From Chlamydiales bacterium (GTDB lineage Bacteria > Chlamydiota > Chlamydiia > Chlamydiales > JAAZZY01), in contig CBDBKM010000003.1 of assembly GCA_965206695.1 (NCBI GenBank), positions 64,001 through 128,000 of the forward strand: a stretch of DNA of 64,000 bases. The letters run 5' to 3'. Of this stretch, positions 57,101 through 58,423 are shown in pieces (the stretch's first letter is position 1; every line of letters begins with the position of its first letter). The notes below the pieces were generated by a model, which was given only the letters and a program-made list of their open reading frames with translations, was not told the DNA's origin and did not search any database. The position numbers and the translations under genes were made by a program.

Positions 57101-58423
57101 ATGCAACGATTAGTTTTTTTTAAACGAAGGTCTTTTAACTATTCTTCGATTCAACTGCATTGTGCCGCATTGATTATTAGTATCGCTTTAATTTTCGTTT
57201 TAGGTCTTACCATGGTATTTAATACCTCTTCTGCAGAGGTATTGGATTATGATATCAGTGGAGATACGCACCAAGCTCTTTTGAAACAAGGGCTTTATGC
57301 TTTTTTAGGTCTTTTAATTAGCTTGATTCTTTGGTTTATAGGATATCAAGAGATATTGAAACTAAGCTTTCCTATTTTAATTGCTTTAACTTTTTGTCTT
57401 ATATTGGTTTTTCTACCGGGGATTGGTTCAGAGGTTAATGGGGCGCATCGATGGATTTTCTTGGGCAAATATTCTATCCAGCCTTCAGAATTTGTCAAAT
57501 TTTCACTTCCGTTATTCTATATTTATTCCGTTATTCTAGGAGGAGTAAAGCCCAAATCTTTTTTTAAAATTTTAGGGTGTATCATTGTTCCTTTATTTCT
57601 TATTCTTATCGAACCGGCTAATGGTACGACAGCGATTATTATAATGACCTTGATCATGTTATTTATTTTAACAAAAGTGGATTTCAAATTATGGCTTTTC
57701 CCTATTATCATCATCCTTATGTTAGGAGGAATTGCCGCGTATAATATGCCTCATGTTTCTGCAAGGTTAACATCTTTTGCCAATCCCGAAATGGATATTA
57801 GAGGGAAAGGGCATCAGCCCTTTCAAGCTAAAATCGCAGCGGGCTCCGGAGGTCTTACGGGAAAAGGTCTGGGGCAAAGTATGCAAAAGCTTCATTACCT
57901 TCCTGAAGCTCAAAATGATTATATCGCAGCTATTTTTGCAGAAGAATTTGGATTCATCGGTATTTTTTTTTTAATTGTCCTGTATATGATTATGATCTAT
58001 GCAGGATTTTATATAGCAATTCATGCTAGGACTACTCAAGGATATTATATGGCAAGTACTATAGTTTTTTTAATTGGGATTCAGGCTTTTTTAAATTTGG
58101 CTGTTGTTTCCGGCCTTTTACCCAGTACAGGTTTAAACCTTCCCTTTTTTTCACAAGGAGGATCTTCTCTTATAGCAAACTTTATGGGATTGACACTATT
58201 GATTAACATTGCTCAAGATACAAAAGACTTTGACAGCTCCCAACTCTCAAGGGAAGGGATTCCTCATTCAACAACCACTGTCCGGGGAACAAAGCCGGGT
58301 TTTCGCAATACAAATTCCCAAAGGGGAACTTTCACGGTCTTTAATCAACCCATGCTCCCCGGGTCTGACATGATCTCCAAAGGCTTAACTTACCGACTGC
58401 CCCACGGTAGATCTAAAAGATAG
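57101..58423 (+). CDS. ftsW: SEDS peptidoglycan polymerase FtsW, C-terminus replaced by mini-element sequence
   Basis: GAHRWI, QPSEF, LPEAQNDYI, LPFFSQGGSS. Confidence 0.93.
   Translation: MQRLVFFKRRSFNYSSIQLHCAALIISIALIFVLGLTMVFNTSSAEVLDYDISGDTHQALLKQGLYAFLGLLISLILWFIGYQEILKLSFPILIALTFCLILVFLPGIGSEVNGAHRWIFLGKYSIQPSEFVKFSLPLFYIYSVILGGVKPKSFFKILGCIIVPLFLILIEPANGTTAIIIMTLIMLFILTKVDFKLWLFPIIIILMLGGIAAYNMPHVSARLTSFANPEMDIRGKGHQPFQAKIAAGSGGLTGKGLGQSMQKLHYLPEAQNDYIAAIFAEEFGFIGIFFLIVLYMIMIYAGFYIAIHARTTQGYYMASTIVFLIGIQAFLNLAVVSGLLPSTGLNLPFFSQGGSSLIANFMGLTLLINIAQDTKDFDSSQLSREGIPHSTTTVRGTKPGFRNTNSQRGTFTVFNQPMLPGSDMISKGLTYRLPHGRSKR

Follow-up and report, generated by a model that had tools for sequence, protein, structure and literature searches.

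The window analyzed here, a 64,000-nucleotide (nt) stretch of a Chlamydiales bacterium contig (CBDBKM010000003.1, positions 64,001 to 128,000), contains three short mobile elements, copies A, B, and C, and a longer insertion sequence (IS) of the IS200/IS605 type that shares their ends. In copies C and B, one stem-loop of the RNA encoded at the right end is drawn out into a long rod. We consider it probable, at roughly 70%, that this rod forms the outer portion of stem 3, at the “stem 3b” position, in a TnpB-type omegaRNA scaffold, carried by mini-IS605-like (PATE-type) IS200/IS605 derivatives that lack an open reading frame (ORF) and proposed to act as a guide in trans. The original prediction, made from the letters of the window, correctly took the segment for an expansion of one stem-loop in an omegaRNA-type scaffold and named the right strand. 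Its reading was right in kind, but the direction was reversed: gene-less mini-IS605-type elements, an old and widespread lineage, normally have the rod (the long form), and the short hairpin is that of their TnpB-encoding relatives (the short form).

Copy C (58230..58527, minus strand) is a 298-nt mini-IS605-like repeat with 45 BLAST matches in the genome. Its first bases, directly after TTTAT (58532-58528), are GACAGTTAAGCG, and its last, up to 58230, are TGTCAA; the guide would come from the flank, starting at 58229 and running downward. Left end, −10-like box, and long-form omegaRNA scaffold follow one another in that order. The box, TATACT (58428..58433, minus strand), lies 19 nt upstream of stem 1 and is a candidate promoter of a stand-alone RNA. 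Our model R2 (166 positions and 42 pairs, built from 35 sequences) matches copy C at 58248-58415 with 146.3 bits.

All helices of this scaffold lie on the minus strand. Stem 1 (UACCG/CGGUA, 58391..58409) shows covariation across genomes, and its loop (GGCA, 58401-58398) could form a pseudoknot with UGUC (58235-58232) at the end of the element. Stem 2, a 4-bp long-range helix (58262..58383), pairs CCUU (58383-58380) with GAGG (58265-58262) and encloses stem 3. Stem 3a (P0, 58273..58375), in which GAUCA (58375-58371) pairs with UGGUU (58277-58273), closes the rod. The rod itself, delimited by the fold and by helix columns, is unbranched, spans ~81 nt (58282..58362, helices P1 to P4), and takes the place of the 14- to 16-nt hairpin seen in short forms. 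The long nested stem is present where it had been predicted, with the helices CCGGGGAGCA/UGUUCCCCGG, GGGUU/AACCC, CGUGA/UUGCG, and AAGUUCCC-CUUU-GGGAAUUU, and the minimum-free-energy fold reproduces it (−35.5 kcal/mol; z = −2.2; equaled by 4 of 200 shuffles). Two further assignments were dropped: a kink-turn in the loop between stem 3a and P1 (by eye, the nonbulged strand being CA, not GA) and P4 with its U-run as a terminator (the U-run is missing in several lineages).

Conservation of the long arm across phyla

Applied to 150 genomes of this order, model R1 detected six further ones with long forms, compensatory changes being visible and no TnpB frame lying upstream in any of the six; a second sample yielded one further genome with a long form. 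A search pattern combining three conserved motifs from within the insert returned 55 loci in species-representative genomes and 38 metagenome loci from many phyla. Record titles include Dependentiae, Babeliales, Treponema, Waddliaceae and other Chlamydiota, and Pseudobdellovibrionaceae, as well as Psychromonas, Endozoicomonas, Halorhodospira, Vreelandella, Desulfobacteraceae, and Competibacteraceae. R2 matched 41 of the 41 genome loci submitted (of 55) and 37 of the 38 metagenome loci, L176 being the exception. Two loci, L100 and L101, were set aside as chance pattern matches because the conserved flanks are missing. The length and layout of the rod are kept in ~90 loci. One Psychromonas genome holds many near-identical long-form copies, and the long-form family is therefore young there.

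Covariation across these genomes is strong. Set A3 comprised 61 sequences; set A4 comprised 38 (37 metagenome loci and one Helicobacter pylori plasmid locus), none of them used to build R2. Pairing reached 84.6% in A3 against 75.0% when shuffled, with 245 versus 86 double-change cells, and 85.6% against 75.0% in A4, where 28 of 42 pairs changed on both sides versus 14.7 in shuffles. None of 500 shuffles reached any of these values in either set, counts that are not probabilities because the alignments were fitted to R2 and the sequences are related. Sliding the partners by 1 to 3 columns lowered pairing to 57% or less in A3 and A4. The check for covariation that the original prediction had proposed thus gave a strong signal across genomes, in both sets, and no significant one among the copies of this genome (see below).

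Pairs that changed on both sides in A3 and A4 make up 5/5 in stem 1, 3/4 in stem 2, and 6/6 in stem 3a; within the rod, P1 and P4 covary. The pseudoknot covaries as well, the stem-1 loop varying together with the 4-mer that precedes the terminal CAA, with no fewer than five variants across loci (GACA/UGUC, GAAC/GUUC, GGCG/CGCC, GAAG/CUUC, and GGUA/UAUC, found by a heuristic search with our own script). Near-invariant motifs occupy P2, P3, and the internal loops across phyla, and the flanks and apical loop vary. Rods of eight taxa, folded singly, each gave the same unbranched rod, with z scores of −2.6 to −6.2.

The kinds of mismatch tolerated also bear on what is being conserved. In the 61-sequence alignment, G-U cells outnumber A-C cells by 273 to 108 overall, by 48 to 2 in stem 3a, and by 98 to 14 in P1, with the caveat that cells are not independent of one another. 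The argument for selection on an RNA of the minus-strand sense, first drawn from copies B and C, therefore holds at the level of the family. This RNA-helix signature, strongest where A-C is rare (stem 3a and P1), speaks against a hairpin that acts as DNA, in which the single-stranded top strand would aid TnpA excision or integration of very short elements or would stall replication and so expose the ends. Such a role would suit the transposition of IS200/IS605 elements as single-stranded DNA with hairpins at both ends (as is generally known and as the cited part of 10.1101/2023.03.14.532601 describes), and both the tie of the rod to very short elements and the identity of the folded strand with the RNA sense strand agree with it. 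The rod, however, is nested within omegaRNA helices (stem 2 and stem 3a), away from the TnpA-bound ends, and the founding member of the family, HPnc0580, is a detected small RNA (sRNA) according to its Rfam entry. We therefore rate a DNA-level function as improbable.

Other parts of the scaffold vary too. In L089-L137 (Psychromonas), L091-L135 (Endozoicomonas), L087, L108, and L124, one or two extra hairpins (40 to 70 nt) form a second expansion, after the 3′ strand of stem 2 and ahead of the terminal hairpin; its presence in several lineages means that the scaffold has at least two variable sites. In L123 and L128 (a Vreelandella copy and a Desulfobacteraceae copy), short tandem repeats of GAGATAT or GAGAATCT units replace the stem 3a region, and R2 scores are lower.

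Gene-less elements and their TnpB-encoding relatives

Seventy of the 93 pattern loci have at least 700 nt of upstream sequence and were used to look for TnpB frames. None of the 70 has a TnpB frame ending at stem 1. An open frame of at least 150 amino acids (aa) ends near stem 1 in four of them: the two false matches L100 and L101, L120, whose frame belongs to no Pfam family, and L095, whose frame has no TnpB features as judged by eye from the sequence; neither of the latter two was accepted as TnpB. Where an R2 match overlaps the 3′ end of tnpB, it is short: 105 to 109 nt in 8 of 8 plasmid loci (picked for diversity from 40 records listed of 3,898), 105 nt in all six Endozoicomonas loci, 99 nt in each of two Treponema fragments, and 101 nt in this genome. 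The Endozoicomonas and Treponema genomes contain both long and short forms. Overlap of the 5′ part of an omegaRNA with the 3′ end of tnpB is thus found in the short-form relatives and in 0 of 70 long forms. The scaffold otherwise has the position of an omegaRNA, at the right end and running to the transposon boundary, with flanking DNA as the guide, and its stems 1, 2, and 3a follow the order known from ISDra2, with covariation.

Copies A, B, and C share with the TnpA- and TnpB-encoding IS the first ~55 nt (left end) and the last ~110 nt (right end). None has an ORF of its own, and the single long frame in copy C is the tail of a neighboring ftsW-like gene on the opposite strand. These elements, 222 to 298 nt long, are therefore nonautonomous IS200/IS605 derivatives of the mini-IS605 or PATE type. 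The left end follows TTTAT or TTAT in most aligned copies and in the full IS, and in all three copies and the TnpB-bearing IS, the scaffold ends in TGTCAA at the repeat boundary.

Copy B (44148..44439, minus strand) is of the same type as copy C and more decayed, with its rod at about 44276-44194 and an R2 match at 44161-44327 (129.4 bits). It had been predicted to keep most of the pairing; the rod is indeed present, but its fold is no better than that of shuffled sequences (z = −0.61, 50/200). Copy A (18543..18764, minus strand; R2 match 18565-18663, 69.9 bits) combines the same left end with a short-hairpin right end and is the only intact case of this combination in the genome. The full element (46925..52396, plus strand) starts at 46925 after TTTAT and ends at 52396. 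It is an IS with TnpA and TnpB that is full only with a qualification: its tnpB is cut by nested insertions of three other repeat families (48300-52110). TnpA, a Y1 transposase, is encoded at 46985-47338 (minus strand), the first 298 aa of TnpB at 47407-48300, and the C-terminal 57 aa, which match the TNB domain of TnpB, at 52135-52305 (plus strand). The short-form omegaRNA follows (R2 match 52278-52378, plus strand), with its short hairpin at 52330-52345.

Between GATCA and TG(A/G)T(C/T), copies C and B have ~80 to 85 nt versus the 14- to 16-nt hairpin in copy A and in 52278-52396. BLAST of the insert found 15 places in the genome (14 near full length and one 43-nt piece), all 15 at the same site of the element, and the same rod with its invariant motifs recurs in dozens of genomes of other phyla, so copies B and C did not acquire the segment as an addition of their own. 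In size and in being palindromic, it is similar to small repeat elements, and it replaces the hairpin exactly, which would suit the insertion of an independent small mobile or repeat sequence into the loop of that hairpin in these two copies. We consider such an origin very improbable: no match in this genome is free-standing (an independent repeat elsewhere would have refuted the original prediction), the same junctions occur in other phyla, and the segment has no terminal features of its own.

An anchored scan of this genome gave 57 strict matches, 52 of them short forms (30 to 34 nt between anchors) and 5 long forms (100 to 101 nt). A survey starting from stem 1 gave 102 hits, with certain loci counted twice. 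Eight long forms adjoin a mini-type left end, and four do not, their upstream parts being unrelated sequence as judged by eye in the alignment. Short forms without a mini-type left end number 78, and only three have one: copy A and two with 7 to 9 nt to the 3′ anchor, a spacing that points to internal deletion. The remaining nine hits could not be classified, the 3′ anchor not being found. Long-form inserts are 76 to 88% identical to that of copy C, and the long-form copies here are old and decaying, not recent; TnpA would have mobilized them in trans. On the side of the autonomous IS, ~25 right-end copies, all short form, are 98 to 100% identical to that of the window, and ~20 IS copies with TnpA and TnpB retain open 383-aa TnpB frames; TnpA matches number 51.

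Several observations concern individual copies and their surroundings. The long form L019 (G000:C6:7921-8264) has an unrelated ~80-nt insertion between stem 1 and the remaining scaffold. No differences separate the copies at G000:C5:35101 and C13:129197 over the part aligned, suggesting a segmental duplication. BLAST of copy C against plasmids gave no match. Copy C lies between an ftsW/rodA-like gene and a murG-like gene at 58547; the ftsW/rodA-like ORF (57101-58423, plus strand) extends into it, so that its last ~65 codons are the antisense strand of the mini element, and the Pfam match stops at residue 375 of 440. Copy B has, immediately upstream, a fragment of a degraded DDE_3 (IS630-type) transposase gene (44473-44860), which is 80 to 90% identical to a copy at 30264-31300 (region 30536-31339). 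Three repeats are nested in the tnpB of the full element: an IS630-like gene at 48759-49781; an IS of 1.77 kb (~49840-51607; ~30 genome copies more than 99% identical), whose frame of 555 aa is transposase-like; and an ORF-fragment repeat of 502 nt (51607-52108), with copies 98 to 100% identical that number well above 150. Young ISs saturate this genome. Elsewhere in the window, two paralogous Ser/Thr protein kinase genes (28530-30137 and 37707-39095, minus strand) are 76 to 87% identical in DNA over ~1 kb, and three exact 45-nt tandem repeats (39296-39430) lie beside the second.

A proposed guide in trans

Among 56 nonredundant loci, −10-like hexamers cluster just upstream of stem 1, with 8 at 10 to 19 nt and 18 at 20 to 29 nt, compared with 1 to 7 per 10-nt bin elsewhere. 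In the H. pylori locus, TGgTATAAT lies ~10 nt ahead of where the Rfam match begins. A −10-type box upstream of stem 1 may thus be the promoter of the gene-less elements. When 58150-58650 was scanned for promoters and terminators, the result was a single weak promoter-like site, which lies outside the element, without any terminator.

From the anatomy, we infer that these RNAs may be used by TnpB in trans as guides. The mini element would be a stand-alone guide-RNA gene, transcribed from the −10-type box; its RNA would be loaded in trans onto TnpB made by autonomous copies and would guide the nuclease to the empty donor site, with retention of the mini element as the outcome. The rod would point away from the protein, like stem 3b of ISDra2, and may benefit the RNA either ahead of loading or in the course of it, by way of folding, resistance to nucleases, or competition with omegaRNA made in cis; alternatively, it may bind a further conserved partner. 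The roles suggested by the original prediction, recruitment of another protein or altered RNA stability, would be compatible with this position. TnpB and TnpA matches were found in five of the five genomes with long forms that were checked, and because these genomes keep both proteins and the present genome has ~20 TnpB frames, a supply of TnpB in trans is plausible.

The same observations bear on whether the long-form RNA is still a guide at all. It might instead have become an sRNA with a role of its own, in regulation or in binding a host protein through the rod, that spreads on IS605 ends. HPnc0580 appears among the noncharacterized sRNAs of H. pylori in the cited part of a review (PMC8322730), the elements tend to have their own −10-like box, the rod contains invariant unpaired motifs, and one genome with three copies has only one or two TnpB matches. 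If TnpB binding had been lost, however, we would not expect the omegaRNA core (stem 1, pseudoknot, stem 2, stem 3a, and terminal hairpin) to be kept and to covary in long forms, nor does the retention of TnpB and TnpA in all five genomes fit this account. We give it a slim chance, and the trans-guide reading remains the preferred one.

Several results weigh against the preferred reading, trans guidance with a rod that matters to it. The first concerns the copies of this genome. Over 12 copies and one from a relative, pairing was 86.9% versus 86.4% when shuffled, a value reached by 98 of 500 shuffles, under a structure of 35 pairs set by hand. The helices were set in this way because RNAalifold, run on the MAFFT alignment of these copies, missed the rod and returned weak local structure (−4.8 kcal/mol), probably owing to indels. 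Departures from Watson-Crick consensus pairs comprised 31 G-U and 26 A-C (p = 0.6); the claim that mismatches are G-U only is thus true of copy C, under the helices first proposed, and not of the copies overall. With covariation not above chance and A-C departures as frequent as G-U, the copies in this genome look like neutrally decaying relics of a structured ancestor. Second, within the rod, P2 is near-invariant in sequence and never changes on both sides, and P3 shows no covariation and fits the model poorly (60 to 65% paired), with two alternative registers by eye. Third, the TnpB-linked sample represents one clade (44 to 65% identity among its members or to the TnpB of this genome) and is without a full-length right end of H. 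pylori IS605; for these two reasons, the link between the rod and the lack of an ORF is strong in our sample and not proven in general. Fourth, a sigma-70 promoter scan called none in copy C, where the −35 region is poor, and the public runs comprise three from one study, all assembled contigs (one with the stretch) and none recorded as RNA. Finally, ISDra2 can do without its stem 3b, so cleavage need not depend on the rod.

These points leave some room for a rod that is a neutral expansion segment, arisen once in the founder of a successful mini-element lineage and kept paired only because an unpaired insert would disturb stem 3. The disorder of ISDra2 stem 3b and the gain in activity upon its deletion (reported in the cited part of PMC10097598) would be expected in that case, as would TnpB-linked relatives without the rod, the decay of this genome's copies without visible constraint, and copy A, a mini element with a short hairpin. 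Against it, P2, P3, and the internal-loop motifs are near-invariant across phyla while the flanks and apical loop vary, length and layout are constant in ~90 loci, and P1 and P4 covary. Simple hitchhiking leaves the invariance of unpaired bases unexplained, and we regard neutral expansion as unlikely. A role of the rod in the stand-alone life of the RNA is favoured over its rivals, which together hold a clear minority of our expectation.

A more specific version is that the rod is an adaptation of “hyperparasite” elements consisting of a guide RNA alone. It would load promoter-driven omegaRNA in trans onto the TnpB of others, either by outcompeting the cis guide or by docking a second partner through the P2 and P3 motifs, in a lineage that spread horizontally across phyla and did not arise by repeated deletion. 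Taken as a whole, this scenario is possible but doubtful.

Should the arm be important for loading in trans, it is relevant to how nonautonomous transposons exploit RNA-guided nucleases and to the design of guide RNAs for compact TnpB editors, in which the same stem is routinely trimmed. Even if the arm does not matter, an uncharacterized sRNA of H. pylori can be assigned structurally to the omegaRNA-type scaffolds, and an Rfam family that currently breaks off within a helix is extended. Gene-less IS200/IS605 derivatives, a type on record from Helicobacter, and the HPnc0580 RNA were already known, and the anatomy given here is sharper than that in print. In the literature searched, we found no paper on a conserved enlarged stem 3 common to gene-less elements, on TnpB-linked copies in the same genomes without it, or on the same arm recurring from Chlamydiota to Spirochaetota and Gammaproteobacteria.

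Comparison with known RNA families and elements

At the gathering level, Rfam gave no match in the whole window. With E values of up to 10, HPnc0580 (RF02269) was the one family to come up in 58150-58600, with no ribozyme or self-splicing intron, as the original prediction had also concluded. Separately, HgcC (RF00062) matches of 21 to 23 bits, against a cut-off of 50, were taken as chance. Copy C scores 30.6 bits for RF02269 (E = 0.0027), and the best three matches of the genome all fall below the cut-off of 37 bits. Among other loci, L088 scores 50.7 bits and four score 32.6 to 34.6 bits. The H. pylori plasmid locus L211 reaches 120.2 bits and is a full long form under R2 (76.3 bits); frames upstream of it belong to no Pfam family, and the element looks ORF-less. 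L088 and L211, both above the RF02269 cut-off, are thus joined to copy C by R2.

The closest structural comparison is with the omegaRNA of ISDra2. In the cited part of the cryo-electron microscopy study (PMC10097598), that RNA consists of stem 1, a pseudoknot between the stem-1 loop region and bases before the guide, a 4-bp stem 2 around stem 3, stem 3a, the distal stem 3b, and a terminal stem 4, with a guide from flanking DNA. Stem 3b is flexible, unresolved, and free of protein contact, and its deletion raised editing activity (PMC10097598). The window RNA has the same order of parts, with the rod at the stem 3b position, a correspondence drawn from topology alone. In ISDra2, however, stem 3b is 22 nt long in a tnpB-linked RNA, whereas the rod here is ~80 nt long, has conserved internal motifs, and occurs in ORF-less elements.

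The PATEs of Geobacillus stearothermophilus provide a precedent for the elements themselves. According to the cited part of 10.1101/2023.03.14.532601, they are minimal nonautonomous derivatives of IS200/IS605 that keep both ends but no protein gene; in one family the omegaRNA is all that is natively encoded, and TnpA from a separate plasmid-borne gene excised mini-transposons built on the ends of that family. By description, the window elements resemble PATEs in being gene-less and in having both ends. The same part of that report describes no enlarged stem or distinct scaffold for the gene-less G. stearothermophilus elements.

The probable relatives by RNA family are those of H. pylori. The miniIS605 is a nonautonomous element of most H. 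pylori isolates and contains HPnc0580 (cited part of PMC6531487). In the passages cited, HPnc0580 is listed as noncharacterized (PMC8322730) or placed in miniIS605 (PMC6531487), and neither passage names it as a TnpB guide. The RF02269 model spans no more than the first 105 nt and breaks off within the rod, which it does not describe as a structure, and the helix sequences of HPnc0580 differ from those of the window by compensatory changes. HPnc0580 and miniIS605 nevertheless resemble the window elements in their ORF-less appearance and in the −10 box upstream, and the RNA family is probably the same. As described in the cited part of PMC2993954, the mini-ISs of H. pylori occur, like those here, in multiple copies that have diverged by 10 to 20%, with the left end beside a fixed target motif, which for IS606 is TTAT.

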